A stretch of 64,000 nt of DNA from a virus (lineage: Duplodnaviria; Heunggongvirae; Uroviricota; Caudoviricetes), in the IMG/VR virus record IMGVR_UViG_3300028887_000087; one strand, 5' to 3'. Under the pieces are notes generated by a model. The model saw nothing but the letters and a program-made list of their open reading frames with translations, was not told the origin of the DNA and ran no database searches. Within the stretch, counting starts at the first letter, position 1. The number at the start of each line of letters is the position of its first letter. The translations under genes were made by a program, and so were the position numbers. Shown here in pieces: positions 33,146-60,039 of this stretch.

Positions 33146-33436
33146 ATGGGAGTTTCTTTCGATTGCACAAAAGAAGAACATATTTTCAGAAAGAAGCCTG
33201 TGACTATTGCAGCGATTGGTTGGAATGGTAAAAACTTTGATGCAGTGAAAAAGTTTGCAGGCGATAATGTTTACCTTGAGAACGGTGAATTGATTATCAA
33301 AACTTTGGAAGACGGGGTTGACGGAAAAGTAAAGCACGCAGCAACTGTTGGTGATTTTGTTATTCGTGGTGTTAAAGGTGAATACTACTTCTGCAAACCT
33401 GACATCTTCGAAGCAACTTATGAGGTTGTTGAGTAA
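33146..33436 (+). CDS. hypothetical protein (96 aa)
   Basis: GGAGGA RBS. Confidence 0.5.
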   Translation: MGVSFDCTKEEHIFRKKPVTIAAIGWNGKNFDAVKKFAGDNVYLENGELIIKTLEDGVDGKVKHAATVGDFVIRGVKGEYYFCKPDIFEATYEVVE

Positions 33437-34146
33437 TGCCAGTTGAAGTTAAAGAATGTACAACAAAAACTCCGCTTCAAATGATTGGCGAGTTTGCAGG
33501 TATTTGCTGGGGTGCAAATATCAATGATGCTGAAAAGAATATTGCTCGGGCAATTGATTGTATCGTCTCAGGACACGAAAGAACTGAAGAGTTTCCTGAT
33601 GTTTATCTTGTTCTTAGCGACCATTCAGCAAAATGTATTCGTGAACTTTATACACATATAGGTGGAGCACCTACAAGATTGCAGGCTTCAACTCGTTATA
33701 TTGATTACGAAAAGAAAGGTGTTGAAGTTGTGACACCGCCTTCAATTGGAAAAAATCAAGAAGCTTTGGCTGTATGGAATTCAACTGTTGATACAATCAG
33801 AAACGCAATGAAAGCTTTGAAGGATTATGGAATTCCAAATGAAGACTTGACAAACTTGCTTCCACTTGCGTATAAAACAAAAATGGTTTGGAAGGTTAAT
33901 CTTCGAACACTTGTTCATTTTATGAATATGCGTTTGTGTTCAAGAGCGTATTGGGAAATCCGTGCCCTTTCATTAGAAATCAAAAATGCTTTGGAAAACT
34001 ATTCAGAGGAATGGGCAATTATCTCTGCACATCTTTTTAGACCAAAGTGTGAGGTTTCAGGTTTCTGTACTGAAACAAAATGCTGCGGAAGAGCACCTCA
34101 AAAACAGATGGAATTCAAATATGAGAAAGCTGACAAGAGCCGATAA
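33436..34146 (+). CDS. thyX: flavin-dependent thymidylate synthase ThyX-family protein with divergent RHR motif
   Basis: SGHERTEEF; ...QASTRY; C-terminal VNLRTLVHFMNMRLCSRAYWEIR matches ThyX xNxRxLxHFxxLRxxxxAQWEIR; RHR replaced by REL..TH. Confidence 0.7.
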   Translation: MPVEVKECTTKTPLQMIGEFAGICWGANINDAEKNIARAIDCIVSGHERTEEFPDVYLVLSDHSAKCIRELYTHIGGAPTRLQASTRYIDYEKKGVEVVTPPSIGKNQEALAVWNSTVDTIRNAMKALKDYGIPNEDLTNLLPLAYKTKMVWKVNLRTLVHFMNMRLCSRAYWEIRALSLEIKNALENYSEEWAIISAHLFRPKCEVSGFCTETKCCGRAPQKQMEFKYEKADKSR

Positions 34147-36163: not shown

Positions 36164-37888
36164 ATGGGTGCAACAACTTTCTCTGCGATAAACAAAGTTT
36201 GTATGGTTGTGTATCGCAAAAATAAAATAGAAATTCCTGACTCAAAAGAGATTACTCAGCTTATGGAGTATTTTCATATTGAAAAGGAAGAAGCAATACT
36301 CTTTGCTTATTTTACTTATCGAAAGATTGAAGAAAGTTGTGCTTATTTTACGCTTGAAGACTTAAACCGCGACGTTGATGTTTCAATGACAGAAACACTT
36401 TCTTATATTCCTACAATCGAAAACTTGCTTAAGAAAGGTTTGTTCTGCTTAAGAGACAAAATAAAGTTTGACCCAAATGTTCAGAAAGTTGACAGATGGA
36501 CAGCTTTCACAGTTGATGAAGAACTTATTGACTTGATTACTTATAATAAGCCAATTGAAGATTATAAGCCAACTTATTCAACTAAAGTTTACAATGCGGT
36601 TGACTTCATTTCATCAATTTACAATCTCCCAAAAAGAATGTTGCGTTCAAAATACAGTATGTCTCACCACGTTGCGCCTTATATGAAAGACCCTTGGGTT
36701 AAAAAGCTTGTAAACGATTTGGTTGATATGGGTGACGGAAGAGGCAAGAAATGTGAGGATGCTGATAATAGCGATATTATCATAGTCGACCCAATGGGAT
36801 CTTGGACAAACTTCCTTCACTTTTGTATGCTTGCTCGTGAGTTGTGGACAGAAAAGACAGCATCAGTAAAAGGTGTGTTCTCTGATTACGATGTTTCAAC
36901 AAACGATATTATTTATGAACTTAATCAGATAAAGACAGGAAAGTCTGTTCTTATTCAGAAAGAATATTTTGAATTGGACAAGACTGATATTGCCGATAAT
37001 ATTGAAGTAATATGGGGACCTAGAGTTCTCAAGGCTTTTGAAGGCTACGAAGACTTATTGCTTCAGGAAAGCTCAGGCAAAGAATTGCAGAAAATTGAGT
37101 TTAAGGACATTAAGCCAAAAAACTTATATTATAACGAATCTAATGAAAAAGACATCGAACGTCTTGAAAGTATTATGAAGGAAGAAAATTACCTTCAGTT
37201 GAGAAAGCGTCTTGACGAAAAGGGATTGCCAAAAGGCCTCACAGTACTTTTATACGGAGCACCTGGGACAGGTAAAACTGAAACAGTTATGCAGCTTGCA
37301 AAAAAGACAGGACGCGATGTGTATCATTTGAATATTGAACAAATAAAAAGTTGTTGGGTGGGTGAATCTGAAAAGAACATCAAGGCTATCTTCAAATCTT
37401 ATTACGCATCAAAAGCAAAGATTAAGCCTATACTTCTTTTCAATGAAGCTGATGCCATTATTTCAAAAAGAACATCAGTAGACGGCTCAAATGCAGCAGT
37501 GACAAAGATGGAGAACGCAATTCAAAACTTGCTTCTTGAGGAACTCGAAAAGTTTGACGGTATTTTTATTGCAACGACTAACCGCGCCACTGACATTGAC
37601 TCTGCATTCGACCGAAGACTCCTTTTCAAATTGAAGTTCGAAAATCCGAACGTACCTGTGAAGGTAAAAATTTGGAAGGACCGTTTGGACTGGCTTGACG
37701 ACAATGATGCAAACAAATTAGCAGAACGTTATGACTTATCAGGTGGACAAATTGACAACATTTATCGCAAGTCAGAAATCGACTATCTACTCTACGGCAA
37801 AAAGCCGAGTGTAGATGAATTGCTTGATTTCTGTAAGAAAGAAAAGTTAGGAAATGAAGGCAGTTCTAAAATAGGATTTTGCAACTAA
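36164..37888 (+). CDS. AAA+ family ATPase (SpoVK/CbbX-like AAA domain at C-terminus)
   Basis: Walker A GAPGTGKTE, Walker B LLFNEAD, sensor IFIATTNR, arginine finger FDRRL. Confidence 0.8.
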   Translation: MGATTFSAINKVCMVVYRKNKIEIPDSKEITQLMEYFHIEKEEAILFAYFTYRKIEESCAYFTLEDLNRDVDVSMTETLSYIPTIENLLKKGLFCLRDKIKFDPNVQKVDRWTAFTVDEELIDLITYNKPIEDYKPTYSTKVYNAVDFISSIYNLPKRMLRSKYSMSHHVAPYMKDPWVKKLVNDLVDMGDGRGKKCEDADNSDIIIVDPMGSWTNFLHFCMLARELWTEKTASVKGVFSDYDVSTNDIIYELNQIKTGKSVLIQKEYFELDKTDIADNIEVIWGPRVLKAFEGYEDLLLQESSGKELQKIEFKDIKPKNLYYNESNEKDIERLESIMKEENYLQLRKRLDEKGLPKGLTVLLYGAPGTGKTETVMQLAKKTGRDVYHLNIEQIKSCWVGESEKNIKAIFKSYYASKAKIKPILLFNEADAIISKRTSVDGSNAAVTKMENAIQNLLLEELEKFDGIFIATTNRATDIDSAFDRRLLFKLKFENPNVPVKVKIWKDRLDWLDDNDANKLAERYDLSGGQIDNIYRKSEIDYLLYGKKPSVDELLDFCKKEKLGNEGSSKIGFCN

Positions 37889-37893
37889 CTAAA

Positions 37894-38898
37894 ATGACAG
37901 AGAGGTTAAACAAGTACCTAGCATTTTCCACTTGCGGGGCAGGTATGTTGGCAAACACAATTGGGCTCATCTCAAGGCTGAATTATTTTGACGGCGGTCT
38001 TCTTTATTTTGTAAACATCGCATCTACAGCTTTTTCACTTTTTTGTATTATTGCCTTGGGAGCAATCTTTTTTAGGAGAAAAGAGTATACAAAGTACATA
38101 AGCGCAATCGTTATAATTACCGCAGCAGTAAATTTTCCGATAACTTTTTTGACAAATCAAAGTAATATATTTATGTTCTATCTTCCTATGATGGGAACAG
38201 CAATAGGTTTGCTTTCAATTGAAAATTGGAAAAAGTCAGTTGTTTGGGGTTCGATTGTTTTAGCAGAAGATACAGCAATGATTTTCTTGAAACATTACCT
38301 TGGTTTGTATAATGATTGGTGGGCATCACATTGGATAAATTGTTTCGGAGCAATTATTTCAACTTTCTTATTCTCTGCAATTGTTGTATCACTTACACTT
38401 AAAGCTTTCAGAGATACAAACAAAAGATTGAGTAAAGAAGCTGAACACGACCAACTTACAACAGTTTACAACAGATACAAAATGGACCAAGATATTAAGT
38501 CAAAACTTTATAAGTATGCTGCTATGATTGATATTGACTGGTTCAAAAAAGTTAACGATACTTATGGACACAAAGCAGGTGATAGAGCTTTGCAGCAATT
38601 AAGTCAATCGTTATTAAGATATGTGACAGATGACTTCCGTGTATATCGTTACGGTGGAGAAGAGTTTTTGATACTTTGCCGCAGCGATGAAAAAGATTTT
38701 CTTGAAAGACTTGATATGATTTGGGAAGACCTTGAACTTACATTCTGTTTAAGACAAGGCGAAAAATTGAGTGTTTCAATAGGCGCAGCTTTTTCAGACA
38801 AATCTCATAGGCTTATCAACTTAGCAGACGAAAATCTTTATAAAGCAAAAAATAACGGTCGTCATCAAGTTTGGTACAACAATAATAAACTTTACTAA
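37894..38898 (+). CDS. membrane-anchored GGDEF-domain diguanylate cyclase
   Basis: ~6 N-terminal TM helices; FKKVNDTYGHKAGDRAL; YRYGGEEF; LYKAKNNGRHQV. Confidence 0.8.
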   Translation: MTERLNKYLAFSTCGAGMLANTIGLISRLNYFDGGLLYFVNIASTAFSLFCIIALGAIFFRRKEYTKYISAIVIITAAVNFPITFLTNQSNIFMFYLPMMGTAIGLLSIENWKKSVVWGSIVLAEDTAMIFLKHYLGLYNDWWASHWINCFGAIISTFLFSAIVVSLTLKAFRDTNKRLSKEAEHDQLTTVYNRYKMDQDIKSKLYKYAAMIDIDWFKKVNDTYGHKAGDRALQQLSQSLLRYVTDDFRVYRYGGEEFLILCRSDEKDFLERLDMIWEDLELTFCLRQGEKLSVSIGAAFSDKSHRLINLADENLYKAKNNGRHQVWYNNNKLY

Positions 38899-38935: not shown

Positions 38936-40417
38936 ATGACAATTAAAGATCAGTTCAAAGCAAAAGTCCTCGAGCCTATTGATGAAGCAGGCTTCAAAGC
39001 TTACTTTGTAGGCGGTTGTGTTCGTGACTTTTTGATGGGCGTTGAGCCTCACGATTACGATATTTGCACAACTGCAACCCCTGAAGAATTGCACAAAATC
39101 TTTGATAAGTTTTCAAATGTTTCAGCAAACAGTGAGCCATTCGGTGTTACGATGCCGCTGATTGAAATTGATGGAAAGCTTGAAGAAGTTGAAATTGCAA
39201 CTCTCCGCAAGGATATTACAAAAGGACGACATCCAAAAATCGAGTTTACTCGTGACATCAAAGAAGATGCAGAACGCAGAGATTTTACTGTGAATGCCCT
39301 TTACGAAGATATTGACGGTTTTATTTTTGATATGGTTGGCGGCGCTCAGGACATCAAAAACAGAACATTACGTTTTGTTGGAAATGCTCAGGACCGCATC
39401 GATGAAGACCCATTAAGAATATTCCGTTTTGTTCGTTTCCTTGCTTCAAAAGGTTTCAAGTCAGCTTACACAAAAAGAGAAGTTCTTGATTGGAATTTTT
39501 CTTTTACTGAAGTATCTGCTGAAAGACAGCTGAAAGAGTTAGAGAAAACTTTTGCAGGTAAGTTTTTATTCCCAGATACTTGGGAGTTTGTTTTAGCAGC
39601 AAGAGTTTTAACTCCGTTAGGATTAACTTCGATTATGGTTGACCTGCGAAATATTGTTCAGTCTTGGATGTGGCACGCTGAGGGTTCAACTTGGACAAAA
39701 GACGGAAAGGATTTCAAAGGCGACGAGATAACAGATTTTGACGGTTTTGTTCCTGCAACCCACGGAACTGCTTGGGACCATACACTGTTAGTTATGAAAA
39801 GAATGGCAGAGTTATCAAAAGACTTAGACGAGCACACTCGTTTCGTAATGATGATGGCTGCTTTCTTACACGACATCGGTAAGGCTCATTCAAAGCTGGG
39901 CTTAAAAACAAATACTTTCAAAATTGGAAGCAAAGAGTTTACTGAGACAATTCCTAAGGTTTCTGACCACGATGTTGTTGGCGCTCCTATTGCATACGAT
40001 ATTTGCAAAAGTATCGGTATGACAAACGATGACAGTGAGACAGTTCGCGAGCTGGTTGGCTTACATATGCGAGCTCATCAGTTAGGTGATATGAAATCAA
40101 AGAAGGCAATCTGGGAGATTACTTCAAACCCTATTTTCGATAAACTGGTTATGTTAGCAAAGGCTGATGAGTCAGCTTGTGTTAAGACAGTTGACGATGC
40201 TTGGGTTGGTATTGAGAAATCTTTAGAGAAGCCTATCATTCAGTCAGTTATCGGTAAGCCAATGCCTAAGCCAATTATTACAGGTCAGTTCCTGATTGAC
40301 AAAGGCAGAACTCCTGGGCCAAAGTTTAAGCATATCTTAGATGTTGCATTAAAGATGCAGATTGACAAGGATATGACTGATGCTGAGGCAATTTACAAAA
40401 TTGTGAAAGGATGCTAA
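38936..40417 (+). CDS. cca: CCA-adding enzyme / poly(A)-polymerase-family tRNA nucleotidyltransferase with HD domain
   Basis: GGCVRDFLMG...DYDICT head motif; RRDFTVNAL; HD motif AFLHDIGK. Confidence 0.8.
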   Translation: MTIKDQFKAKVLEPIDEAGFKAYFVGGCVRDFLMGVEPHDYDICTTATPEELHKIFDKFSNVSANSEPFGVTMPLIEIDGKLEEVEIATLRKDITKGRHPKIEFTRDIKEDAERRDFTVNALYEDIDGFIFDMVGGAQDIKNRTLRFVGNAQDRIDEDPLRIFRFVRFLASKGFKSAYTKREVLDWNFSFTEVSAERQLKELEKTFAGKFLFPDTWEFVLAARVLTPLGLTSIMVDLRNIVQSWMWHAEGSTWTKDGKDFKGDEITDFDGFVPATHGTAWDHTLLVMKRMAELSKDLDEHTRFVMMMAAFLHDIGKAHSKLGLKTNTFKIGSKEFTETIPKVSDHDVVGAPIAYDICKSIGMTNDDSETVRELVGLHMRAHQLGDMKSKKAIWEITSNPIFDKLVMLAKADESACVKTVDDAWVGIEKSLEKPIIQSVIGKPMPKPIITGQFLIDKGRTPGPKFKHILDVALKMQIDKDMTDAEAIYKIVKGC

Positions 40418-44609: not shown

Positions 44610-45194
44610 ATGAAAGAGTTTTTTGTTAGTGACTTACATATAGGACACGAAAACTGTTTAAGATTTGACAACCGTCCTTTTAAGGACCTTGCAGAACAGA
44701 ATGAAAAAATGGTTGAAATTTGGAACAAAAGAGTAAAGCCTGAAGACCACGTTTGGATGCTTGGTGATATTCTTTGGTTTGCAAATAAAGAAAATGAAGA
44801 TGTACTTAAATCTCTCAACGGCAAAAAGTATCTCGTCACAGGCAATCACGATGGACGAATGCTTAAAGTCGGACATATCAAAAATCTTTTTGAAGAAATC
44901 CACGAAGGCTATCATAAGCTTCACGACAGCAAAGGTCGTACACTTATTCTTTCACATTACCCAATTATTCAGTTTGACGGCGTAATGCGTGGAAACATCC
45001 ATCTTTACGGACACATCCACGTTAACCCAAAAGATAACGCTTTTATTGAAAAGTGGAAGAAAGAATACGAAAAAGAAATGACAGGACAGGCTGGCAATTC
45101 ATTCAAAGTGAATATGTATAATGTAGGTTTTGCTGTTCCTTATATGGAATGGGGGCCAAAAACATTAGATGAAATATTGGAGGCAAACAAATGA
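44610..45194 (+). CDS. calcineurin-like metallophosphoesterase
   Basis: SDLHIGH, WMLGDI, VTGNHD, SHYP, GHIH motifs. Confidence 0.75.
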   Translation: MKEFFVSDLHIGHENCLRFDNRPFKDLAEQNEKMVEIWNKRVKPEDHVWMLGDILWFANKENEDVLKSLNGKKYLVTGNHDGRMLKVGHIKNLFEEIHEGYHKLHDSKGRTLILSHYPIIQFDGVMRGNIHLYGHIHVNPKDNAFIEKWKKEYEKEMTGQAGNSFKVNMYNVGFAVPYMEWGPKTLDEILEANK

Positions 45195-45700
45195 AACACT
45201 TTATCGTAATTGATATGCAGAATGATTTCTGCACAGGCGCTTTGAAAAACGATGCCGCTGTTGCAATTATACCACGCATTAAAGCGGAATTGCAGGCAGC
45301 AAAGGCAGACAGCGCAAACATCATCTTTACTCGTGATACACACTTTGACGGTTATCTTGAAACAGGTGAAGGTAAGCATCTCCCAGTAAAGCACTGTCTT
45401 CAGAATACAGAAGGCTGGGAAATTGTTCCTGAACTTAAAGAAGAGATTGATGACAAAACTACAGTCATTGACAAGCTTCACTTTGGCTACGACAACTGGG
45501 GCAATTACATCAAGCCTAACGATGAAATTACAATCGTAGGAACTTGTACTGACATCTGTGTTGTAAGCAACGCCCTTGCTCTCAAAATGATTGAAGGTGT
45601 TGAAGTAAAAGTAATTGCTGATTGCTGCGCAGGCCTTACTCCTGAAAGCAACGAAGCTGCATTGACAACAATGAAAATGTGTCAGTGCGAAATTGTATAA
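45191..45700 (+). CDS. pncA: nicotinamidase / isochorismatase-family cysteine hydrolase (PncA-like)
   Basis: VIDMQNDFCTGA, FTRDTHFDG, KHC, IVGTCTDICV, VIADCCAG match PncA catalytic D/K/C and metal-site motifs. Confidence 0.8.
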   Translation: MKHFIVIDMQNDFCTGALKNDAAVAIIPRIKAELQAAKADSANIIFTRDTHFDGYLETGEGKHLPVKHCLQNTEGWEIVPELKEEIDDKTTVIDKLHFGYDNWGNYIKPNDEITIVGTCTDICVVSNALALKMIEGVEVKVIADCCAGLTPESNEAALTTMKMCQCEIV

Positions 45701-46362: not shown

Positions 46363-46461
46363 AAAACTTCATAAAGTTTATCAAGGTATCTCTTATATTG
46401 ATTTACCTTAAAATTACAAATGCAATTGACAGATGGAAGAGAAACAGACAGGAGAAGAAAA

Positions 46462-47265
46462 ATGACTAGTTTTGATACTTTTACAAATGAAGAAAGAATG
46501 AAGGACATTCACGATAAGATTATCGTTTGGATTAAGAACTTTTTTAATGACAAGAAAGGTCCTGCAGTAATTGGTATCAGCGGCGGAAAAGATTCAACAA
46601 TCTGTGCTGCTCTTCTTACTGAAGCACTTGGCAAAGACCGTGTAATTGGTGTAATGATGCCAAACGGTGAGCAGAAGGACATCTCTGACTCAAAGAAAGT
46701 TATCAGCACTCTTGGTATTCGTGAAATTGAAATCAACATCAATGGAATGTACAAAGACATCACATCAAGAATTGGTGATTGGTACGAAGGTGATGAAATA
46801 CCAAGTCTTTTCACAACAAACACTCCTGCCCGTCTTCGTATGGTGACTCTTTACGGAATTGCTGCAGTTTACGGCGGACTTGTTTGCAACACTTGTAATA
46901 AGTCTGAAGATTATGTTGGCTACAGTACAAAATACGGCGACGCTGCAGGTGACTTCTCACTTCTCAATCGTTTGACAAAAACTGAAGTTGTTGCACTTGG
47001 CGATTATATGAAATTGCCAAATGAACTTGTACACAAAATACCTTCAGATGGTATGTGCGGCAAGAGTGATGAAGACAATATGGGCTTTACCTATGAAGCA
47101 CTTGATACATTTATCTTGACAGGACTTCCTCCAAAGTCTGAGGAAGTTTTCAGAAAGATTGTCACAATGCATCACAATCCTAACACAAAATACAAACTTA
47201 TTGATATGCCTTCTGCTCTTGAAGAATTCATCCCTGATGCTTTCGACAGAGTAGCAGAATGTTAA
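46462..47265 (+). CDS. nadE: NH3-dependent NAD+ synthetase (PP-loop ATP pyrophosphatase)
   Basis: PP-loop VIGISGGKDST; ATG 46462 after AGGAG RBS. Confidence 0.8.
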   Translation: MTSFDTFTNEERMKDIHDKIIVWIKNFFNDKKGPAVIGISGGKDSTICAALLTEALGKDRVIGVMMPNGEQKDISDSKKVISTLGIREIEININGMYKDITSRIGDWYEGDEIPSLFTTNTPARLRMVTLYGIAAVYGGLVCNTCNKSEDYVGYSTKYGDAAGDFSLLNRLTKTEVVALGDYMKLPNELVHKIPSDGMCGKSDEDNMGFTYEALDTFILTGLPPKSEEVFRKIVTMHHNPNTKYKLIDMPSALEEFIPDAFDRVAEC

Positions 47266-47274: not shown

Positions 47275-48282
47275 ATGTTGGATTTCAGATTACTGCAAGA
47301 TGTTTTACCTAAAGCTTTTGCAAATATGGGACCCGTGATTGAAATCAATTGCGAGCAACCTACACAAAGTTTTGATTGCTTCAGCGGTCATTTTGAACGA
47401 CCGTTTGGGCAAATGCAGTACCACATAAAGTTTCTTTGTGGTTATATTGAAATGGGTGAAAACGAGCTTTGGGACAAAATAAGTCCTTATATTGAAGAAG
47501 AAAGCGATGACGAGGAAGTTGTCGAAGAAAATACGGAGGTTAATATGGACGTAAATGGAATGTTTGGAAAGTTCCTTAAGCCAATCAAGCCTGGGATGGT
47601 AAGAATTGGCCTTAATGGTGAACTTGCTGTAAAAAGTGGCTCAGGCTATAAAACTTACAACGCTAAAACAAAACAGCTTGTAAATGTTCAGGATTTCTGT
47701 TTCGATATTGGGCAGGATTTGTTTATTTGTGTTCCAACTGCAAAAGTAAAAGTTGGCGACATCATTGTTCTTGATGACCCAGACGCTCCTCAGGGAGTTG
47801 CACCTAAGTGTGTTACTGCTCTCGAAGACGGCAAGACAATCAAGGTTATGGACTACAGAACAAATGAAATTCAAACAATCGTGCCTGAGCGTCATTTCTT
47901 CCTTGGAAAGATGTTCTTCTACAACAAAATCCATTCTCTTATCCCAATCGGAGACCTTGCAGGTTCAAAAGGAACTGACAAGTTCGGTAAGCTTCTTGGA
48001 AAGATGGCTTTGATGAATGCATTTACTGGTAAAGGTTTCAACTTTGGTGGCGGCAGCGGAGACAGTGAAGGTAATGGCGGACTTAACGGTTTGGCTATGA
48101 TGGCTCTTTTCGGCGGCGGACTTTTTGGCGGCGGCGGAGACGATGATTTGTTCGACTTCTCAGGTATGTTCGACCTTGAAATCCCAGACGTTGATGTAAA
48201 CGGCGATGAAACACCTGAAGCAAAGAAAGCTCGCCTCAAGGCAGAACTTGCTGCTCTTGAAGCTGAAGAAGAGAAAAAATAA
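47275..48282 (+). CDS. hypothetical protein with Gly-rich/acidic C-terminus
   Basis: GGGSGDSEGNGG...GGGLFGGGGDDDLFDF tail. Confidence 0.5.
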   Translation: MLDFRLLQDVLPKAFANMGPVIEINCEQPTQSFDCFSGHFERPFGQMQYHIKFLCGYIEMGENELWDKISPYIEEESDDEEVVEENTEVNMDVNGMFGKFLKPIKPGMVRIGLNGELAVKSGSGYKTYNAKTKQLVNVQDFCFDIGQDLFICVPTAKVKVGDIIVLDDPDAPQGVAPKCVTALEDGKTIKVMDYRTNEIQTIVPERHFFLGKMFFYNKIHSLIPIGDLAGSKGTDKFGKLLGKMALMNAFTGKGFNFGGGSGDSEGNGGLNGLAMMALFGGGLFGGGGDDDLFDFSGMFDLEIPDVDVNGDETPEAKKARLKAELAALEAEEEKK

Positions 48283-48353: not shown

Positions 48354-49268
48354 ATGGGTGGCGGATGCTACAGTGAAAGTTCTTTCAGCAGCTATGCAAA
48401 ATCAGTTGGCGCTGTAATGGATAATTGTGAAGTTGATGGCGTAAGAACACTTCGTCTCAACAATATGAAATATTCCCAGACATCTTTACATAGCGAACTT
48501 GACCCTAAGAGTCGTGTTCGTGAATGTTGTAATACAGAGGAACATCCTAATACAATGCCTGTTATCCTTGCTCTTGATGTGACAGGTTCAATGGGTTCAG
48601 CTTGTGATGAATGCGCTGCTTCTGTTGCAAACTTGATGAAGGATCTTTATGAAAAGTTTGAAGATGTTGAAGTTTGTGTAATGGGTGTAGGTGACCTTGA
48701 ATGTGATAGCTCGCCTCTTCAGGTTTCTCAGTTTGAGTCTGATGTTCGTGTTGCAAAACAGATGCAGGAAATTTATCTTGAAAAGGGTGGTGGCGGAAAT
48801 AGTTATGAATCATATACAGCTCCTTGGTATTTTGGTCTTTACCATACAAGATTGGATTGTTTCGACAAGCAGGGAAGAAAAGGCGTTATTATTACAATGG
48901 GTGATGAGCCGCTCAATCCTGCATTAAACAGAAGAGATGTTGAGCACTTCTTGGGCGTTGGATTGGAAGAGCAGACTGAAGTAAAAACAGACAAACTTTA
49001 CAAGGCAGCTTCAAAGAAGTTTGACATCTATCACATTTCTGTCGAAGACGACAGAACAAACTATAACAGCGACAGAACTTCTTACGAAGATCAGGTTGAT
49101 AAGTCATTCAAAGATGTTATCGGAGATGACCATTACCTTGTATCTTCAGTAAACGGACTTCAGAAGAACATCGTTAAATGTATTGAAAAATCATACAAGA
49201 AACGCGAAAGACTTACTGAAGAAGCCCCTGCAAAATCAAAGAAAGATAAATCTGAGGTTGAGTGGTAA
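48354..49268 (+). CDS. von Willebrand factor A (vWA)-like protein
   Basis: MIDAS-like LDVTGSMG; GGAGG RBS before ATG 48354. Confidence 0.5.
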   Translation: MGGGCYSESSFSSYAKSVGAVMDNCEVDGVRTLRLNNMKYSQTSLHSELDPKSRVRECCNTEEHPNTMPVILALDVTGSMGSACDECAASVANLMKDLYEKFEDVEVCVMGVGDLECDSSPLQVSQFESDVRVAKQMQEIYLEKGGGGNSYESYTAPWYFGLYHTRLDCFDKQGRKGVIITMGDEPLNPALNRRDVEHFLGVGLEEQTEVKTDKLYKAASKKFDIYHISVEDDRTNYNSDRTSYEDQVDKSFKDVIGDDHYLVSSVNGLQKNIVKCIEKSYKKRERLTEEAPAKSKKDKSEVEW

Positions 49269-49696
49269 TGATTAAAGGAATTCTTTATAAGCATAAACCT
49301 AATTACGTCCGCGCCTTCTATGTTGACAAAGAAGAGGCAAAAAGAAACGAAGATTATGTTTGCAAACTTATACAAGAGTTCCTTGGTCCCGCTTGGAATG
49401 TTTATACAGTAATTACTTCAGGCGGAAGAATGTGGCATATTTATCGAGATAACTGGGAAGGCCCAGGAAGCCGCAACTATTATGAAGACTTTTACAAAAG
49501 TTGGTTGTTGGTGAAAGAAGAATCAGATGCAGAAAGTGCAGATGATGTTTGCTTTACAGATTACCCATCTTTTTACAAACTTTATGAAGATGCTAAAGAA
49601 GATGAAATCGAGTATGTTGATTTGCCACAGCTTGATGATGAAAGTCCAAAAGAAATCTTTTATACACGAGACGGCGTCAAGGAGCTTGAATGGTAA
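49262..49696 (+). CDS. hypothetical protein (144 aa)
   Basis: coupled ORF. Confidence 0.45.
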   Translation: MVMIKGILYKHKPNYVRAFYVDKEEAKRNEDYVCKLIQEFLGPAWNVYTVITSGGRMWHIYRDNWEGPGSRNYYEDFYKSWLLVKEESDAESADDVCFTDYPSFYKLYEDAKEDEIEYVDLPQLDDESPKEIFYTRDGVKELEW

Positions 49697-49992
49697 AGAA
49701 GTATCTTAAAAAGCCTATAATGGTTGAAGCACTTGAATTTGATGGCAGCAATCTTGATGAAGTTAAAAGTTTTATCGAAGAAAGAAAGCGTAAGGCTGAT
49801 AAGTTGACAATTGTAGAATCTGATCTTGCAACATACGAGTATGAATTGATTTTACCAAACGGTCAGGGCATTGGCTTTAAGAAAGGTGACTTTCTTGTTC
49901 AAGGTGTTGATGGTTCAATTTACCCAGTACATAAAAACACTTTTTGGAAAGTTTACGAAACTCTTGATGACGATAATTATATAAGTTGGTAG
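49690..49992 (+). CDS. hypothetical protein (100 aa)
   Basis: coupled ORF. Confidence 0.45.
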   Translation: MVKKYLKKPIMVEALEFDGSNLDEVKSFIEERKRKADKLTIVESDLATYEYELILPNGQGIGFKKGDFLVQGVDGSIYPVHKNTFWKVYETLDDDNYISW

Positions 49993-49995
49993 AAA

Positions 49996-51078
49996 ATGAG
50001 TATTGATGTTGTAATTGGCGCAAATTATGGAGATGAAGGCAAAGGCCTCACAGTTGCTCGTATTGCAAAGCAGTATGACCCAAGACAAACTTTTGTTATT
50101 ATGGGTAATGGCGGTGCGCAAAGAGGACACTCTGTAATACACGATGGAAAACAACATATCTTCAAACATTTCAATTCTGCAACTCCATTAGGTGTTCGAA
50201 CATTCTTCAGCCCAGACTTTATTCTTGACCCTATTCAGTTCAATGTTGAAAAAGAGGAACTTAAAAAAGTTTACGGTATTGAGCCTATAGCAATTCGTTC
50301 TGCATCTTGTAAGTGGGTGACACCTTGGGACATAATGGCAAATCAAATGTTGCAAAAAGAAAATTGGACAGGCTCTTGCGGTATGGGTATCTGGGAAACT
50401 GTACTTCGTTATCGTAACGGCGTGTATATGGACTTTGATAGTTTTGCTGCTCGTCCACACGATGAACAAGTTGAGTTTCTCAAAAAGATTCGCGACTATT
50501 ACGAAGGTGTAAGAAAGATCAAAGTCAACCCAAAATACCGAACACCTTGGTATTCTGATATTCTTATTGAGCATTTCATAAGAGACTTTATGTCAATGTT
50601 TGAATGTTGCAAAGTTAGCCCATCATTCTTAAACTTGGCTTCAAAACTCCAGTCACAACATTTTATTATCGAAAATGGACAAGGACTTCTTTTAGGCGAT
50701 AAAGGATTTGATGATAAGGAAGCAACACCTTCAAATACAGGACTCCCATCATACATCGACTTGAAAGATGCAAATGTTCATTTCGTAACACGACCTTATA
50801 TTACTCGTCACGGCTCTGATACTTTTGTTGGCCACAAACTTGATTGTGACCTTAATAAGTCAACTGAAATCAATCAGTACAACGAATGGCAGCACGACTT
50901 CTTTTACGATTACCTTGACTTGGCTGATTTGAAAAAGAGATGCGATGAAGAAGTCGCAATGCATCATATCAAAAGATATACAGTCGAAGTCACTCATTGT
51001 GATGAACTTGACCGTGAAGTTGAGTTCAAAAATATTTTTCACGGAAATTGTAATTTTTACGATTCAAATAAACTTTAA
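49996..51078 (+). CDS. adenylosuccinate synthetase (PurA)-family protein, divergent (PurZ-like candidate)
   Basis: P-loop GANYGDEGKG; NGGAQRGHS (cf. GGHNAGHT); GSCGMGIWETVLRY (cf. GTTGRGIGPAY); ENGQGLLLGD (cf. EGAQGTLLD); KLD motif. Confidence 0.7.
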   Translation: MSIDVVIGANYGDEGKGLTVARIAKQYDPRQTFVIMGNGGAQRGHSVIHDGKQHIFKHFNSATPLGVRTFFSPDFILDPIQFNVEKEELKKVYGIEPIAIRSASCKWVTPWDIMANQMLQKENWTGSCGMGIWETVLRYRNGVYMDFDSFAARPHDEQVEFLKKIRDYYEGVRKIKVNPKYRTPWYSDILIEHFIRDFMSMFECCKVSPSFLNLASKLQSQHFIIENGQGLLLGDKGFDDKEATPSNTGLPSYIDLKDANVHFVTRPYITRHGSDTFVGHKLDCDLNKSTEINQYNEWQHDFFYDYLDLADLKKRCDEEVAMHHIKRYTVEVTHCDELDREVEFKNIFHGNCNFYDSNKL

Positions 51079-51104: not shown

Positions 51105-51701
51105 ATGGAATATATAGACTATAACGTAAGAGACGCCTTTAAAACAAAGGCAACTGAAAACGGCAGAAGCACTGATTACATCAATTTATATATGCTCATA
51201 TATGAATTCAGCGATGACCGCCACGGCTACGATTGGGACAAAAGAGAAAAGTACTTTAACGACCTTCAGGATTTCGTAAAACATTTTGAAGGCGAAGGTA
51301 TTGTAGGCAGTCAAAGTGATTTAAGGGATTGGGACTTTGAAAGTCAGCAACCTTTTTATCAAAAAGGTGATATTGAGTGCGTCAGCATAATGGCTCCCGA
51401 AGATGACTTCTTTGTAAGAAACCTTCTTGATGCATTAAATCCTCTCGATTATGCAATTGAATACAGAAAAATGGCTCCTCGCAAAATTACAAAATTGCCA
51501 AAAGACGCATACGGAACTGAAGTCGAGATTGGCGATATTGTTGTTTGGGAAGGCGCTGCACACAGAGTTAAAAGTATCATTTCCGAAATAACGATAAACA
51601 AGAAAAGAATGTTTACCCGTGATTGTGTTGTTGTAAGAACAAATAACCCAAACAAGAAACTTGGCTGGGTTGAATATATTGATAACGGCAGAAAAGAATA
51701 A
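51105..51701 (+). CDS. hypothetical protein (198 aa)
   Basis: ORF after class-1 motif. Confidence 0.5.
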   Translation: MEYIDYNVRDAFKTKATENGRSTDYINLYMLIYEFSDDRHGYDWDKREKYFNDLQDFVKHFEGEGIVGSQSDLRDWDFESQQPFYQKGDIECVSIMAPEDDFFVRNLLDALNPLDYAIEYRKMAPRKITKLPKDAYGTEVEIGDIVVWEGAAHRVKSIISEITINKKRMFTRDCVVVRTNNPNKKLGWVEYIDNGRKE

Positions 51702-51717
51702 TTGGAGGTTCACTTAT

Positions 51718-53025
51718 ATGTGGTTAATCAATGGTAAATTGACTGATGATGAAAATGTCGTAATGGTGGCTTTTGACTTGAAATACCCGCCTATGGTAAA
51801 ATCACCGCTTGATACTGACCAGTACAAAAAGTCTATGAAACAGACTTATCTGCATCAGTTTAGCGATGCCCACGCAACTTGGGATTTCAAAGCCCGCAAT
51901 GTTGGTGATGGAACAAAACACGAAAAGTATACGGAAGAAGACCGTATTGAAATTAAGAAACAGATTATGGCTTACTGTGCTCTTGTTTACACAGAAGCAG
52001 AACTTGCCTTCCTTGGTGACCCAGTAAAACGTCCTTGGATTCATAACAACTTCATTGAAGTTGAACGCGATTGGCGTCCTCATCTTGAAGACTTTGAAGT
52101 TCTTGAAGATGAAAAGACAGGCCTTGCAATTCACACAAAAGGCGTTCAGTGGAAAATTTCTGATTACGAAATTCCTGTTCTTGAAATTGCTGCAGAAACA
52201 TATTACCGCAATCACTACGATTACGAACAGCTTGTAAAAGACTTCAAGGAAAAAACACTTGAAAAGATTGATTATATCAAGCGCGGCATTTTCCGCCCAG
52301 GTGCTTTCTCTGAGTTTGGTGCTCGTCGTCGTGTAAGTTTTGAACTTCAGGATTGGTTGGTAAAGACTCTTGTTGAAGCTGCAAAGGACCCAGACTTTGC
52401 AAAAAATGCAAAGTTTGTCGGAACTTCAAATATGTTCCTTGCTATGAAGTATGGAATTATGTCAGTAGGTACAATGGCTCACGAGTTTATTATGACTGTG
52501 GGACAGGGTTATCTCAAACACAATCCTGCATTCAGCAATTGGTACGCTCTTGATGCTTGGGTAAAAGAATACGGTACAATGAACGGTATCGCTCTTACAG
52601 ATACAATCGGAACTGATGTGTTCCTCCGCGACTTCAAGAAAACATTTGCAACAGTGTTCAGCGGCGTTCGTCACGACAGTGGTGACCCATACGCTTGGGG
52701 TGATAAAATCATTGCACATTACAAGAGCTTGGGTATTGACCCTATGACAAAAACTTTGATGTTCAGTGATGGTTTGAACTTGAAGAAAGCAACAGAACTT
52801 AACGAATACTTCAAAGGTAAAGCTCAGGTTGCGTTCGGTATCGGAACAGACTGGAGCGGTCCTCAGGGAATTGATGCTTTGAACATCGTATGTAAGGTTG
52901 CAATTGTAAACGGCCTTGATGTTGCAAAACTCAGTGATGCTGAAGGCAAGAATATGTGCCGCAATCCTGCAGCAATCGAACATCTTAAGAATGAGATTGC
53001 TTGGAGAATGGCAACTGACAAATAA
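51718..53025 (+). CDS. nicotinate (or nicotinamide) phosphoribosyltransferase, NAPRT/NAMPT family (PncB-like)
   Basis: FGARRRVS, GTSNMFLA, VGTMAHEF, VRHDSGDP, VAFGIGT family motifs; GGAGG RBS before ATG 51718. Confidence 0.7.
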   Translation: MWLINGKLTDDENVVMVAFDLKYPPMVKSPLDTDQYKKSMKQTYLHQFSDAHATWDFKARNVGDGTKHEKYTEEDRIEIKKQIMAYCALVYTEAELAFLGDPVKRPWIHNNFIEVERDWRPHLEDFEVLEDEKTGLAIHTKGVQWKISDYEIPVLEIAAETYYRNHYDYEQLVKDFKEKTLEKIDYIKRGIFRPGAFSEFGARRRVSFELQDWLVKTLVEAAKDPDFAKNAKFVGTSNMFLAMKYGIMSVGTMAHEFIMTVGQGYLKHNPAFSNWYALDAWVKEYGTMNGIALTDTIGTDVFLRDFKKTFATVFSGVRHDSGDPYAWGDKIIAHYKSLGIDPMTKTLMFSDGLNLKKATELNEYFKGKAQVAFGIGTDWSGPQGIDALNIVCKVAIVNGLDVAKLSDAEGKNMCRNPAAIEHLKNEIAWRMATDK

Positions 53026-54836: not shown

Positions 54837-55472
54837 ATGAAAAAGATTAAAGAAGAAGAGTTGCTTAAGACTCCCGTATTCACAGTTGTCAAAAAGACTT
54901 TTGACGGCACAAAGTTCAACCCAGTAGGACTTAATTGCCACGATTGGGTTATGGTAATTATAACCGATAAACCTTGTTGGGAAGCTGATGCAAAAGCAGT
55001 TCTTATCAAACAGACTCGCTGGGGTCTTGAAGATAAAACAATTGAATTCCCTTGCGGCACAGTTGATGACGAAGACTTTTTCGCTGCTGCACTTGTAAAA
55101 AACGAAGAAGAGTTTGAAGAACTTTGGAAAAGAATAAGCGATGACGAAAAGCGGGACATCCTTGCAGACGGAAGAATGAAAGCTGCAGCCCGTGAGTTGA
55201 AAGAAGAAACAGGAATGGACGTTGTTGATATTGACTTGAAACATCTTATCACTTTCAACCCAAATCCTGCCTACTTCAACAACACAATGTCAATTTATCG
55301 CTGCGTCGTACCAAACCTTGATGAATTGATTGCAAAGAAAGGCGAACAGAATCTTGACGAAAACGAAGATTGTGAAGTAATTTACGACCGCCTTTTGGAC
55401 CATACTTCTGAAATATCAGAACACGCGATGGGTATTGCGGCACTTTTTGCTGCAGGTTATCATCTTGACTAA
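54837..55472 (+). CDS. Nudix hydrolase (ADP-ribose/NADH pyrophosphatase-like)
   Basis: Nudix box core RELKEETGM (REUxEExGU); AAGAGG RBS. Confidence 0.65.
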   Translation: MKKIKEEELLKTPVFTVVKKTFDGTKFNPVGLNCHDWVMVIITDKPCWEADAKAVLIKQTRWGLEDKTIEFPCGTVDDEDFFAAALVKNEEEFEELWKRISDDEKRDILADGRMKAAARELKEETGMDVVDIDLKHLITFNPNPAYFNNTMSIYRCVVPNLDELIAKKGEQNLDENEDCEVIYDRLLDHTSEISEHAMGIAALFAAGYHLD

Positions 55473-57165: not shown

Positions 57166-60039
57166 ATGGGTTCAAAAAATTCTTGGCGCTTGCAGTTCAT
57201 TGATATTGATAGTTCATTCACAATCAATACTGAAGCAAGCACAATCAAGGGCTATATGGTTGTAAGAGCTCCTAAGGGTGAAAAGAATCCTTATTATTTT
57301 GAAAAAGGTAATATGGAAGCTATTTACGCTATGGTTGGTGTTCCTACATCAAATTGGCCTGACCTTTATGAGGCAGAAGCTTTCAACCAAGAGTACGGTT
57401 TGTACATCTCTGCTCCTGCAGGTTCTTCAGCTTCATATCCTTCATACTTCGGCGGTTCTTACATCACAAGTAAAGGTCTTATCGACTTCTACAATGTCAC
57501 AGGTAAGGACGTAGTTGACTATACACAAATGGTTCAGGTTGGCTTTGAAAACGCTCAAGGCTACAGAGATTCAAATGTAAACATTATCGTTAACCCAGAA
57601 GGCGTTGGCGGTGAATCAGGTTATCCTACAGGTGCACTTCCTGACGGAACAAAAGACAACCTCGCAGTTTACATCACAGGTATTACTGCAAAAGTTTGGG
57701 CAAATGTTCAGGAAATTGGTCTCAACTATTGGGGAGACGAAAAGTCAGGATTTGAGGAAGGTGTTTACTACTACTCTGTAAACAAAACTGACCACAAACT
57801 TTATGTTGAAAACGCAGACGGAGACGTCGTAACAGACTTCTATTGTGGTGTTTGGTGGAAGGCAGAAGATGGTACATATTCTGTAATGATTGGTGGTAAT
57901 TCTTGGGTTATCAACAACTCATCATTCAAGACAGGACAGGCAACTGCTCTCAATACTCTTGCAGAACTTGGTATCACAGCAACTTCTACAAACGATTACA
58001 ACAATTCAGACGCTCCACTTTTGACTTTGACAGACCTCTTGCCAAATGTTGAATTGGCTTGTGCAATGCAGTCTTCAAAATACTCTTGGAATAATGTTGT
58101 TGCTTACCTCGAAGATGGCAACTCATTCGGTGCTGCAGGTGCTGCAGTTGACCCTAACTTCCTTGGTGTTGAAATTATCGTAGATAGCGAACAGGGCAAG
58201 ACAATGTATGAGACAACTTCTACATACGTTTCTCCAAAGAACCGCTATCAGGGTATTACTTGGTTGCTCAACGTAAAGGCTGATACATACGGATATATCG
58301 TTCAGAAGTCTCCTGCTGAGGTGACAACTGAAGTTACTATTACAGGCATCGGTTATGATAAATGGAAGTACGATTTCGCGGCTCCTCTTATCATTGGTGA
58401 CCTTAAGAAAATTGACCGTTCAGTTCTTGACAATTTGAACTACAACAATGACGACAACTTGTTCTTGAACATTGAAGGTTCTTACTCAAGCAACGCTCTT
58501 ATCGTTCCAGAAAAAGCTGCTGCTGCAAAGAAAATCAAGTTGTATTCTTACAACCCAGATTTGGATAAGACAAAGTATCCTACAGCTGCTAAGGCTTCTG
58601 CAAATGTTGGTGAGTCTTACTTGACACAGTCAATCTTGATTTACGGTGTAAAGGTTTTGAACAACAACGCTGAAACAGCAACTCAGCTTGATGACAACAC
58701 AACAACACTTCAGATTGACCACGAAATCGTTTACGTTGTATCTCCTTCAAACTTCCAGTTTGAAGCAGAGGATGATAAGAATTATCCATTGGTTAAGGAC
58801 ATCAACTTCAACACAATGACATTCAACGTAAAAGAGGAAGTTTACCCAGGTGAAATGATGAGCGGTGGTGAGTTCACTGGTTCGTTCGATGAAAAGGGTA
58901 AAGACGGATTTGGTGCAAACATTTATTGGCCAAACGTACTCAACGATGACGATATGTCATTCATTGAAATCCATCCTGACAAGACTTTTGACGAAGATCT
59001 TGACTCACACGGTATTTATACAAAGAAACGTATCGTTGATGACAAATTGACATACGATGCAGAAGGAAACATTGTTCCTGTGACATACAAACTCAAGCTC
59101 AAAGGTCAGCGTTATGCTACTTATGCAGTTGAGAAAAACCTTGCTGAAGGAACAGTTGGTGGTTCTTGGCGCGATGAGTTTATGATGATTGTTAAGCAGG
59201 GTTGGACTGAAGCATTCGATGCTCAGTACGACGACGTATATGTATTTATGGATCCTACAGGACAGGAATTCGTACATACACAGCACGCTTCACTTGTTGA
59301 AACACACAAGCTTGCAATGGCAATTTCACCTAAGCTTATTACTCAGGGTGAGTTCGCAAATCCTTCAAAACTCACTGTTACTGGTCGTTCTAAACAAACT
59401 GCTCAGTATGCAGGTGAATTCCAGTTCTACGATGCTTACACAGGTAAGTCATTCTGGATGATGCCTATTGGTGATGTTGGTTTGATGTACTGCCGTATCA
59501 TCGAAAAGAAGATGGGTGGTTGGGCTCCTGCTTGGTACAATTACAACAATATGGGTGGTCAGTTGCCTCGTGCAATTCTCAAAGCTCGTTGGAACTTCTC
59601 TGACTCAGCAACAAAGATTATGGATGAAAAGGGTATCAACCCAATCGTTTATAACGCTGATGATGGTTTGATGTGTGTATCATCAAAGACAACTCAGGAC
59701 CCTAACAACGTCACAGACTGGTCTGAAGTAGGTCACGTACTTGCATTCTTGCTCTGTAAGCGTGAAATCCGCGACAACGTAATGCGTCAGCAGATTAAGA
59801 AACCTATTGATGATTACTGGATGGGTGTTCGTCAGGAACAGGTTGAGGCAATCCTCGCAAAGAGAACTGTTGGTTCAAACAAGATTTGGGCAAAAGCAGT
59901 TTGCGATATTGCAGGTGTAAACAACGATACAACAAAAGCTATGAAGAAGTTCTACATTTACGTTAAAGTAAAGGTAAACGTATTCTCAGAATATGTTGTA
60001 CTCGTATTCGAGAACGTTGGGCAGACAACTAACATATAA
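57166..60039 (+). CDS. 957-aa protein, probable major virion structural (capsid-like) protein
   Basis: Own leader with hairpin + strong RBS, strong terminator downstream; composition typical of highly expressed structural protein; no motif match. Confidence 0.55.
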   Translation: MGSKNSWRLQFIDIDSSFTINTEASTIKGYMVVRAPKGEKNPYYFEKGNMEAIYAMVGVPTSNWPDLYEAEAFNQEYGLYISAPAGSSASYPSYFGGSYITSKGLIDFYNVTGKDVVDYTQMVQVGFENAQGYRDSNVNIIVNPEGVGGESGYPTGALPDGTKDNLAVYITGITAKVWANVQEIGLNYWGDEKSGFEEGVYYYSVNKTDHKLYVENADGDVVTDFYCGVWWKAEDGTYSVMIGGNSWVINNSSFKTGQATALNTLAELGITATSTNDYNNSDAPLLTLTDLLPNVELACAMQSSKYSWNNVVAYLEDGNSFGAAGAAVDPNFLGVEIIVDSEQGKTMYETTSTYVSPKNRYQGITWLLNVKADTYGYIVQKSPAEVTTEVTITGIGYDKWKYDFAAPLIIGDLKKIDRSVLDNLNYNNDDNLFLNIEGSYSSNALIVPEKAAAAKKIKLYSYNPDLDKTKYPTAAKASANVGESYLTQSILIYGVKVLNNNAETATQLDDNTTTLQIDHEIVYVVSPSNFQFEAEDDKNYPLVKDINFNTMTFNVKEEVYPGEMMSGGEFTGSFDEKGKDGFGANIYWPNVLNDDDMSFIEIHPDKTFDEDLDSHGIYTKKRIVDDKLTYDAEGNIVPVTYKLKLKGQRYATYAVEKNLAEGTVGGSWRDEFMMIVKQGWTEAFDAQYDDVYVFMDPTGQEFVHTQHASLVETHKLAMAISPKLITQGEFANPSKLTVTGRSKQTAQYAGEFQFYDAYTGKSFWMMPIGDVGLMYCRIIEKKMGGWAPAWYNYNNMGGQLPRAILKARWNFSDSATKIMDEKGINPIVYNADDGLMCVSSKTTQDPNNVTDWSEVGHVLAFLLCKREIRDNVMRQQIKKPIDDYWMGVRQEQVEAILAKRTVGSNKIWAKAVCDIAGVNNDTTKAMKKFYIYVKVKVNVFSEYVVLVFENVGQTTNI

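Follow-up and report, generated by a model that had tools for sequence, protein, structure and literature searches.

What does a phage gain from a shortened and strongly divergent homolog of adenylosuccinate synthetase (PurA)? The question is raised by a gene at positions 49996 to 51078 of a 64,000-nucleotide stretch, called here the window, from the IMG/VR virus record IMGVR_UViG_3300028887_000087 (Duplodnaviria; Heunggongvirae; Uroviricota; Caudoviricetes). The initial annotation offered two answers: a PurZ-like enzyme that starts the synthesis of 2-aminoadenine (Z) DNA with its partner genes outside the window, or a PurA-like enzyme acting on a different substrate together with the adjacent genes of NAD (nicotinamide adenine dinucleotide) and nucleotide salvage. 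The second is the one backed by comparative genomics, through a von Willebrand A (vWA) partner, the regulator NrtR and the aspartate loop. The gene, named gene C here, would encode a nucleoside triphosphate (NTP)-dependent ligase that uses a nucleophile other than aspartate and acts with the vWA partner in the restoration of NAD+ and adenylate, a reading to which a probability of about 0.55 is given.

The gene in question is the following:

49996..51078, + strand: gene C, predicted NTP-dependent ligase of the PurA superfamily, vWA-linked clade, 360 amino acids, Pfam PF00709

The gene starts with ATG and its product, 72 amino acids shorter than E. coli PurA (432 amino acids), contains the motifs YGDEGKG (residues 11-17), NGGAQRGHS (38-46), GSCGMGIWETVLRY (126-139) and ENGQGLLLGD (226-235). 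The reading frame, its length and the motifs are present exactly as first described, and the early estimate of a protein roughly 70 amino acids shorter than cellular PurA was accurate. The Pfam family Adenylsucc_synt (PF00709) was matched with 52.5 bits (E=4.4e-14, gathering score 27) over residues 5-278, and phrog_1211 with 100 bits. Among PDB sequences only PurA chains were matched, by gene C itself as well as by a profile of 45 family sequences, which reached 95 bits with solved bacterial PurA chains; PurZ or PurZ0 entries were absent from the matches of the profile. Homology far beyond chance assigns the protein to the PurA superfamily, and the divergent relationship initially proposed holds.

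Within this superfamily gene C is, as judged from its sequence, neither PurA nor PurZ and forms an uncharacterised branch of its own. The NCBIfam PurA models gave 18-41 bits against cut-offs of 368-700: TIGR00184 40.8 (cut-off 395.55), NF002223 37.6 (402), NF010355 35.5 (445) and NF003295, the short archaeal PurA type, 29.2 (368). The PurZ model NF038379 gave 19.2 bits against a cut-off of 300. The PurZ proteins of S-2L and phiVC8 scored 46-52 bits with E. coli PurA and at most 21 bits with any member of the gene C family. An alignment of 68 sequences, comprising 55 of the gene C family, 6 PurA and 7 PurZ/PurZ0 (one Bacillus phage protein included), showed mean identities of 0.21 between the family and PurA, 0.17 between the family and PurZ and 0.28 between PurA and PurZ. 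The neighbour-joining tree of these sequences (Poisson distance, 100 bootstraps) contains three clades, each recovered in 100/100 bootstraps: the gene C family, PurA, and PurZ/PurZ0 with the Bacillus phage protein. Gene C stands outside both clades in which the initial annotation had considered placing it. Genuine purA genes were also identified in phage records, with products 41-64% identical to E. coli PurA and in a clade separate from gene C. The Bacillus phage protein is the purA product (L185) of vB_BpsS-140, 24% identical to E. coli PurA, and its grouping with PurZ/PurZ0 (100/100) may indicate one more PurZ-type lineage.

The two kinds of gene were found in different phages. With gene C as query, tblastn matched 222 phage records (202 of Mycobacterium cluster C, 10 of Rhizobium and 6 of large Vibrio phages among them), and with phiVC8 PurZ 204 records, from phages of Arthrobacter, Microbacterium, Acinetobacter and Gordonia and from small Vibrio podoviruses; the host groups are disjoint, save for two different sets of Vibrio phages. 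This agrees with the 481 phage PurA homologs reported in PMC12884076, among which PurZ accounts for just 147, each with Ser at position 13.

The remark in the initial annotation that no DatZ- or MazZ-like gene is visible in the window, made without database searches, was borne out by them. In the window, tblastn with phiVC8 PurZ, DatZ and DpoZ returned chance-level matches only (E 0.46 or worse), and the addition of S-2L PurZ, DatZ and MazZ returned nothing at E<=1. In the 175 family loci, with flanks of 8-10 kb, phmmer identified no DatZ, MazZ or DpoZ at E<=0.01, a search that did not include DutZ, DmtZ and DUF550. PurZ genes are linked in their genomes to enzymes that clear dATP or dGTP (DatZ, MazZ/DUF550, DutZ/DmtZ) and often to DpoZ. 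Gene C very probably has nothing to do with 2-aminoadenine DNA.

The active site was compared in the 55 family members, using the numbering of E. coli PurA. G12, D13, K16, G17, H41, E221, Q224 and T239 are kept in 55/55 and R143 in 50/55; in the window gene the counterparts of G12, D13, K16, H41, Q224, T239 and R143' are all kept. In the E. coli enzyme these residues bind the NTP, deprotonate N1 of inosine monophosphate (IMP), stabilise the 6-phosphoryl intermediate and hold the IMP 5'-phosphate, Asp13 and Gln224 being the ones that handle the purine N1 and O6. Position 13 is Asp in the whole family and Ser in 6/6 of the PurZ/PurZ0 proteins compared. The changes of the family are N38Q (54/55), T129C (50/55), V273H (55/55) and K331H (53/55), with R131 replaced by M or another hydrophobic residue and S240 by P. 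In the window gene the signature residues are Q42, C128, H272, H334 and N296-E-W-Q299. The aspartate loop, which is G-[AT]-T-T-G-R-x-R-R in PurA and T-T-V-T-K-K/L-x-R-R in PurZ, reads T-N-x-x-N-x-[FWHY]-Q-G-x-[LF]-[RK]-[YF]-G in the family and EINQYNEWQHDFFYD, without any Arg, in the window gene. A more specific statement, Arg303 deleted in 55/55, was discarded as alignment-dependent in favour of this motif-level description. The guanine element TKLD is changed to THxD, with His in 53/55 and Asp (39/55) or Asn (14/55) at the end, and the family stops about 25 residues further on, the alignment containing no conserved S-x-G-P as counterpart of S414-P417. The initial annotation had pointed to the substrate-binding residues for the distinction, and their answer is divided: the catalytic and IMP 5'-phosphate residues are intact, whereas the aspartate loop is replaced and positions 38, 129, 273 and 331 are changed. 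From this pattern we infer that the phosphoryl-activation half and the nucleoside-monophosphate pocket are preserved and that the two-carboxylate site for L-aspartate is not.

Gene C has two obligate partners that the initial annotation had not considered, encoded upstream of it at 47275 and 48354, and in this phage two small open reading frames separate them from it:

47275..48282, + strand: gene A, protein without a known domain, with a conserved all-beta core at about residues 96-222
48354..49268, + strand: gene B, von Willebrand-A (MIDAS) protein of 304 amino acids, obligate partner, phrog_2971
49262..49992, + strand: two small open reading frames (144 and 100 amino acids) between B and C, a phage-specific interruption

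Co-occurrence was counted with hidden Markov models (HMMs) on the 175 loci containing a gene C homolog, which form 54 clusters at 60% identity. Gene B was identified directly upstream of gene C and on the same strand in 167/167 loci. By cluster, B is present in 51 and A in 38, and a protein with a J-domain and a protein-kinase-like region (Pfam) substitutes for A in 8. Gene C is the last member of a conserved A-B-C cassette, in which B and C form an inseparable pair, whatever the phylum or phage group. The distance between B and C is 728 bp in the window against a median of 4 bp across loci, and gaps as wide as 700-1286 bp are limited to 14 loci, which with few exceptions are large-phage contigs. 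The 100-amino-acid product of the interruption matches phrog_419 and phrog_1810 (function unassigned), with a homolog at the same place in the jumbo-phage locus L002.

The reading frame of gene B opens at ATG 48336; its true start is probably ATG 48354, which lies six bases after a GGAGG. No Pfam domain was matched and phrog_2971 is without assigned function. The protein has a genuine vWA fold with an invariant MIDAS site, conservation of D81-x-T83-x-S85 and T187-x-G-D190 reaching 99-100% among 143 distinct homologs. All homologs compared (143/143), of phage as well as bacterial origin, begin with Met-Gly and have an aromatic residue at position 6, and so do the most divergent ones, from Mycobacterium phage Alice (gp247), Vibrio phage pv27 and a cyanobacterium; this N-terminus lies in a segment (residues 1-9) that is disordered in the AlphaFold2 model. 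In Alice, gene B (gp247, L008 3930-5714) carries an intein, with weak Hint and Intein_splicing matches; its position just before the MIDAS T-x-G-D-E motif suggests that the site is functionally critical.

Gene A comprises, beyond its core, a low-complexity linker rich in Gly and Met, an acidic segment and a C-terminal helix that is conserved, and its first 95 or so residues are specific to this phage group. A Hint-type autoprocessing domain was considered for this protein and set aside, no significant support being found. Apart from phrog_2971 for B, genes A and B matched nothing in Pfam, PHROG, PADLOC, NCBIfam or the PDB sequences, and A, B and C of the window and of one bacterial locus gave no match at E<=0.1 in PADLOC-DB 2.0. 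The proteins replacing A, with an N-terminal J-domain bearing the HPD motif and a kinase-like region, were located at 2821-3894 in L008 and at about 6000-7050 in L042, L079, L082, L084 and L093. This replacement hints at Hsp70 recruitment or phosphorylation within the module.

Genes of NAD+ salvage, which the initial annotation had described only as adjacent to gene C, flank the cassette of the window directly on both sides:

44610..45194, + strand: calcineurin-like metallophosphoesterase, membership of the module uncertain, phrog_547 (E=1.6e-37) and Pfam Metallophos_2
45191..45700, + strand: PncA-like nicotinamidase of the isochorismatase family, NCBIfam nicotinamidase/pyrazinamidase E=3.5e-10, below the model cut-off
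46420..47265, + strand: NadE, short-form NAD synthase, directly upstream of A, Pfam NAD_synthase E=3e-48
51661..53025, + strand: PncB, nicotinate phosphoribosyltransferase, Pfam NAPRTase E=2.2e-61 and NAPRTase_N
54837..55472, + strand: Nudix hydrolase, loosely linked to the cassette, Pfam NUDIX E=2.5e-6

The order is metallophosphoesterase, PncA-like gene, two small reading frames, NadE, A, B, two small reading frames and C, followed by one reading frame without assigned function, PncB, several reading frames and the Nudix gene; the PncA-like gene, NadE, A, B, C and PncB are all on the + strand. The PncA-like assignment is supported by clustering with the Pfam-Isochorismatase genes of related loci and by an HMM match. 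The real start of PncB is probably the ATG near 51718. The phosphoesterase and the Nudix hydrolase, both mentioned at the outset, are confirmed; the former lies directly upstream of the PncA-like gene, and a homolog of the latter was identified near the cassette in L002. Phage phosphatases that turn ADP-ribose-1''-phosphate into ADP-ribose (ADPR) have been reported as counter-defence (bioRxiv 10.64898/2026.01.28.702374).

Similar neighbourhoods were identified in other phages, where they arise independently, and in bacterial chromosomes. In the phage loci L010 and L117, A-B-C is immediately preceded by pncA, a prs-like gene, NAMPT, nadE and NADAR, and L002 contains NadE, PARG and Nudix genes near it. 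Among the bacteria the order is nrtR-pncA-nadE-nadD-pncB-A-B-C in L086 and L088 (the nadD call resting on a CTP_transf_like match), nrtR-pncA-A-B-C in L046, nrtR-A-B-C in L056 and L047, A-B-C-nrtR in L036 and L090, and pncA-A-B-C-prs-like-NAMPT in L075. Counted over the 54 clusters, 23 have an NAD gene within 8-10 kb. NrtR (NUDIX plus NrtR_WHD) is next to the cassette in 47 bacterial loci, at 500 bp or less in 36 and on the same strand in 46.

The palindrome TAGTCA-N3-TGACTA, allowing 0-1 mismatch, was found at about 50 sites immediately upstream of A, of B in loci that lack A, or of nrtR, and at one site only in the rest of the 2.7 Mb scanned. Most of the sites are tandem pairs 57 bp apart in some 30 Lachnospiraceae-type loci (L034-L092; for example 5574/5631 in L036 and 3496/3553 in L081). 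The published NrtR box is a 21-bp palindrome with a GT-N7-AC core, the effector of NrtR is ADP-ribose, and its targets without assigned function include nrtX-nrtY (PMC2330246). The palindromes fit this box and are candidate NrtR operators. The phage window contains neither nrtR nor a TAGTCA-N3-TGACTA box.

The phage loci with the cassette comprise the window, jumbo-phage contigs (L002, L010, L013 and L101-L180), the human-gut phage MT835469, Vibrio phage pv27 and Mycobacterium phage Alice, in which it is formed by gp246 (kinase), gp247 (vWA) and gp249. The bacterial chromosomal contigs belong to Bacteroidales, Lachnospiraceae, Ruminococcus (including the isolate AM36-2AA), Treponema, Myxococcales and Cyanobacteria. 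Clustered at 50% identity, the gene C family has 510 cluster representatives that match at E<=1e-30 and 3218 that do so at E<=1e-10, and it occurs on at least 565 IMG/VR contigs; gene B exceeds 7100 clusters at 90% identity. A homolog of the window gene, 96% identical, is in locus L015 on a 306-kb contig (JAZNWZ010000130.1) binned with a Candidatus Fimenecus metagenome-assembled genome, and one 52% identical is in locus L101 on a 258-kb IMG/VR contig. A gut jumbo phage is therefore the most likely origin of the window.

Genes of this family in more than 200 cluster C mycobacteriophages and in large Vibrio phages are labelled '2-aminooxy adenylosuccinate synthetase' (e.g. NC_028986 gp249 and OR413349 CDS0145). 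They have Asp13 and the vWA partner, and no Z-pathway genes nearby. The label is probably a mis-annotation spread via phrog_1211, and hundreds of database entries that bear it wrongly imply Z-genomes.

A mechanism can be proposed from these elements. Gene C would be the catalytic subunit of the A-B-C module and A a small beta-domain adaptor. With GTP or ATP, C would phosphorylate the oxo group of a mononucleotide-type substrate, the simplest being a 6-oxopurine nucleotide such as IMP, and a nitrogen nucleophile other than L-aspartate would then displace the phosphate, with ammonia, some other neutral amine or an amine of a protein as candidates. B and A, or the J-domain/kinase protein, would bind to C and be required as scaffold, regulator or substrate-presenting subunit. 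The module would serve to restore the NAD+/adenylate pool while NAD+ is being consumed, and in a large phage, together with the neighbouring Preiss-Handler or NARP-type salvage genes, it would help replication in hosts that deplete NAD+. Plausibly, the phage A-B-C counters NAD+-depleting immunity.

Several points weigh against this interpretation. Substrate, nucleophile and NTP are all deduced from residue conservation and gene context. Most family members retain one Arg in the aspartate loop, and the alignment of this loop is ambiguous, the gap placement differing between two MAFFT runs, so that only the motif-level statement is safe. In 31/54 clusters the flanks examined contain no NAD gene, and the same is true of the Mycobacterium and Vibrio phage loci examined. 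Regulators of the NrtR family also govern routes outside NAD metabolism, among them the use of arabinose in Bacteroides (PMC4666351), and adjacency to NrtR is therefore not proof by itself. Operons with a complete PncA-PncB-NadD-NadE route leave A-B-C no obvious missing step. Finally, a vWA protein with a J-domain/kinase protein or an adaptor resembles regulatory or conflict modules, so C could be a nucleotide-sensing switch.

A wider proposal, tentative and on balance doubtful, is that A-B-C constitutes a so far overlooked pathway linked to NAD+, common to jumbo phages, gut bacteria and over 200 mycobacteriophages and based on PurA-type ligation without aspartate. The new ligation could be a one-step amination of a purine or pyridine nucleotide, a rebuilding of NAD+, or the covalent attachment of a nucleotide to the invariant N-terminal glycine of B.

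Other explanations were weighed against the NTP-dependent ligase of NAD+/adenylate restoration. C could be a protein-directed ligase, joining an activated purine nucleotide to a protein amine and so tagging a protein for signalling or regulation. The best target would be the invariant, disordered N-terminal Gly of B, exposed by removal of Met. The conservation of that N-terminus and its disorder agree with this, as do the absolute pairing of B and C, the kinase/J-domain variants of the third gene, which hint at a process at the protein level, and the former two-carboxylate site, now aromatic, Gln and Asn rather than basic and suited to an uncharged peptide amine. The case is purely inferential, however: an N-terminus may be conserved for reasons of structure or translation, no earlier case of a PurA-type enzyme modifying a protein was found, and stoichiometric self-modification is ill-suited to a metabolic NAD operon. 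This explanation is unlikely.

Unlikely too is an amidoligase whose substrate is not a purine but a pyridine nucleotide or ADPR, which would be a new enzyme of NAD+ synthesis or reconstitution (nicotinate mononucleotide to nicotinamide mononucleotide, nicotinate adenine dinucleotide to NAD, or ADPR-based rebuilding of NAD+). The tight NAD-operon context favours it, the phage loci that join the cassette to prs-like and NAMPT genes resemble NARP1, and the aromatic, Gln and His residues gained by the family could accommodate a pyridine ring. The retained Asp13 and Gln224 argue instead for a substrate resembling a 6-oxopurine, and with NadE in the same operons a second amidation enzyme would be redundant.

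Somewhat less probable again is a non-metabolic module of nucleotide sensing or conflict, formed by the vWA protein, an adaptor or kinase and a P-loop NTPase, used in bacterial defence or regulation and borrowed by phages, with C as the switch. Regulatory and conflict systems repeatedly combine vWA genes with genes for kinases, J-domain proteins or NTPases, and the variable third genes, the phage-specific insertions and the many loci without an NAD gene nearby would fit. Against it are the lack of PADLOC matches for A, B and C, the invariance of the catalytic residues and not just of those binding the NTP, and a cassette co-transcribed, as the operon layout indicates, with NAD-salvage genes of a housekeeping kind, downstream of NrtR-like operators.

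An ordinary adenylosuccinate synthetase, carried as an auxiliary gene of AMP biosynthesis, is very improbable: PF00709 is passed, GDEGKG, H41 and Q224 are intact and bacterial PurA provides the nearest solved structures, but the equivalog scores, the absent T-T-G-R-x-R-R loop, the missing C-terminal 70 or so amino acids, the lack of a conserved counterpart of the S414-P417 guanine motif in the alignment, the clade distinct from genuine phage PurA and a constant vWA pairing that canonical purA lacks led to its exclusion. PurZ with partner genes elsewhere in the genome is hardly credible, since the phrog_1211 match, the labels of RefSeq phage homologs and a length as short as that of PurZ and archaeal PurA are outweighed by Asp13 (Ser in all PurZ compared, the 147/147 of PMC12884076 included), the NF038379 score, the low mutual scores, the separate clade, the loss of a Thr/Lys/Arg loop that PurZ retains, the negative searches for DatZ, MazZ and DpoZ in the window and the 175 loci and the chromosomal homologs in NAD operons of many bacteria.

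The remainder of the window has a uniform GC content (0.34-0.41), a GC skew that is positive throughout and almost all genes on the + strand. It contains 0 tRNAs, no structural genes were identified in it, and a DNA-level search found no near-identical DNA among GenBank phages. At 36164-38898 an AAA ATPase (574 amino acids) is followed, with stop and start overlapping, by a GGDEF diguanylate cyclase (339 amino acids, Pfam E=4e-30), and a cyclic di-GMP synthase is unusual for a putative jumbo phage. Other assigned genes are a C5-cytosine DNA methyltransferase (8959-10233), a helicase (21225-22856, phrog_2488), ThyX (33436-34146) and a tRNA nucleotidyltransferase of the CCA-adding type (38936-40417). 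Very large reading frames without any family match are present at 13202-19114 (1970 amino acids), 23803-26619 and 57166-60039.

Bacterial immunity uses the depletion of NAD+ as a principal weapon, and the phage pathways NARP1-3 were described only recently. In the present case operon structure and predicted NrtR operators tie to NAD+ salvage a very large family, which at 50% identity forms thousands of clusters and is present on at least 565 viral contigs, in all 202 matched Mycobacterium phage records and in many gut bacteria. The reaction of gene C, once known, would bring new chemistry to the PurA superfamily, and possibly an explanation for an orphan part of the NrtR regulon and a new phage counter-defence. 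A-B-C ligation without aspartate, if true, would be a fourth and mechanistically new phage route past NAD+-depleting immunity.

Compared with known systems, the enzyme is new within a known superfamily, and no characterised counterpart of the three-gene system was found; the literature searched yielded no description of the cassette or of the gene C clade. With PurA (EC 6.3.4.4, PF00709; 1ADE, 1CG0) gene C shares the fold family, the P-loop GDEGKG, Asp13, Lys16, His41, Glu221 and Gln224, and the IMP 5'-phosphate contacts Thr239 and Arg143'. These kept residues make it likely that the two-step mechanism, phosphoryl activation and displacement by an amine, is common to both. It differs in its identity of about 20%, its C-terminus shorter by about 70 amino acids, the replaced TTGRxRR loop, the changes Asn38 to Gln, Thr129 to Cys, Val273 to His and Lys331 to His, scores ten-fold under every NCBIfam PurA cut-off, and its place just downstream of a vWA gene and in NAD rather than purine operons. 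PurZ and PurZ0 (phiVC8, S-2L, Ghobes) are likewise short, phage-borne PurA paralogs under the phrog_1211 label; gene C differs from them by Asp13 in place of Ser, an identity of about 17%, a separate clade, the lost aspartate loop and a family also widespread in bacterial chromosomes.

The NrtR operons of NAD metabolism (nrtR-pncA-pncB-nadD-nadE, PMC2330246) are similar in that the cassette is co-operonic with these genes, beside nrtR and behind palindromes with the GT-N7-AC core. In the phages its neighbours are the same salvage genes, which act against NAD+-depleting defences by reconstituting NAD+, although A, B and C are not enzymes of the Preiss-Handler or NARP pathways: NARP1 is formed by Adps and Namat, NARP2 by NAMPT and NMNAT, and NARP3, unrelated to A-B-C, by PnuC and a NadR-like protein. 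The last comparison is with the vWA-NTPase pairs BchD-BchI, CobT-CobS and NorD-NorQ, in which a MIDAS adaptor works with an ATPase. There the partner is an AAA+ protein of the MoxR type, whereas that of B is a SIMIBI-class PurA-type ligase, and B itself stands out by an N-terminal Met-Gly that never varies and by numerous additional acidic residues that are invariant.

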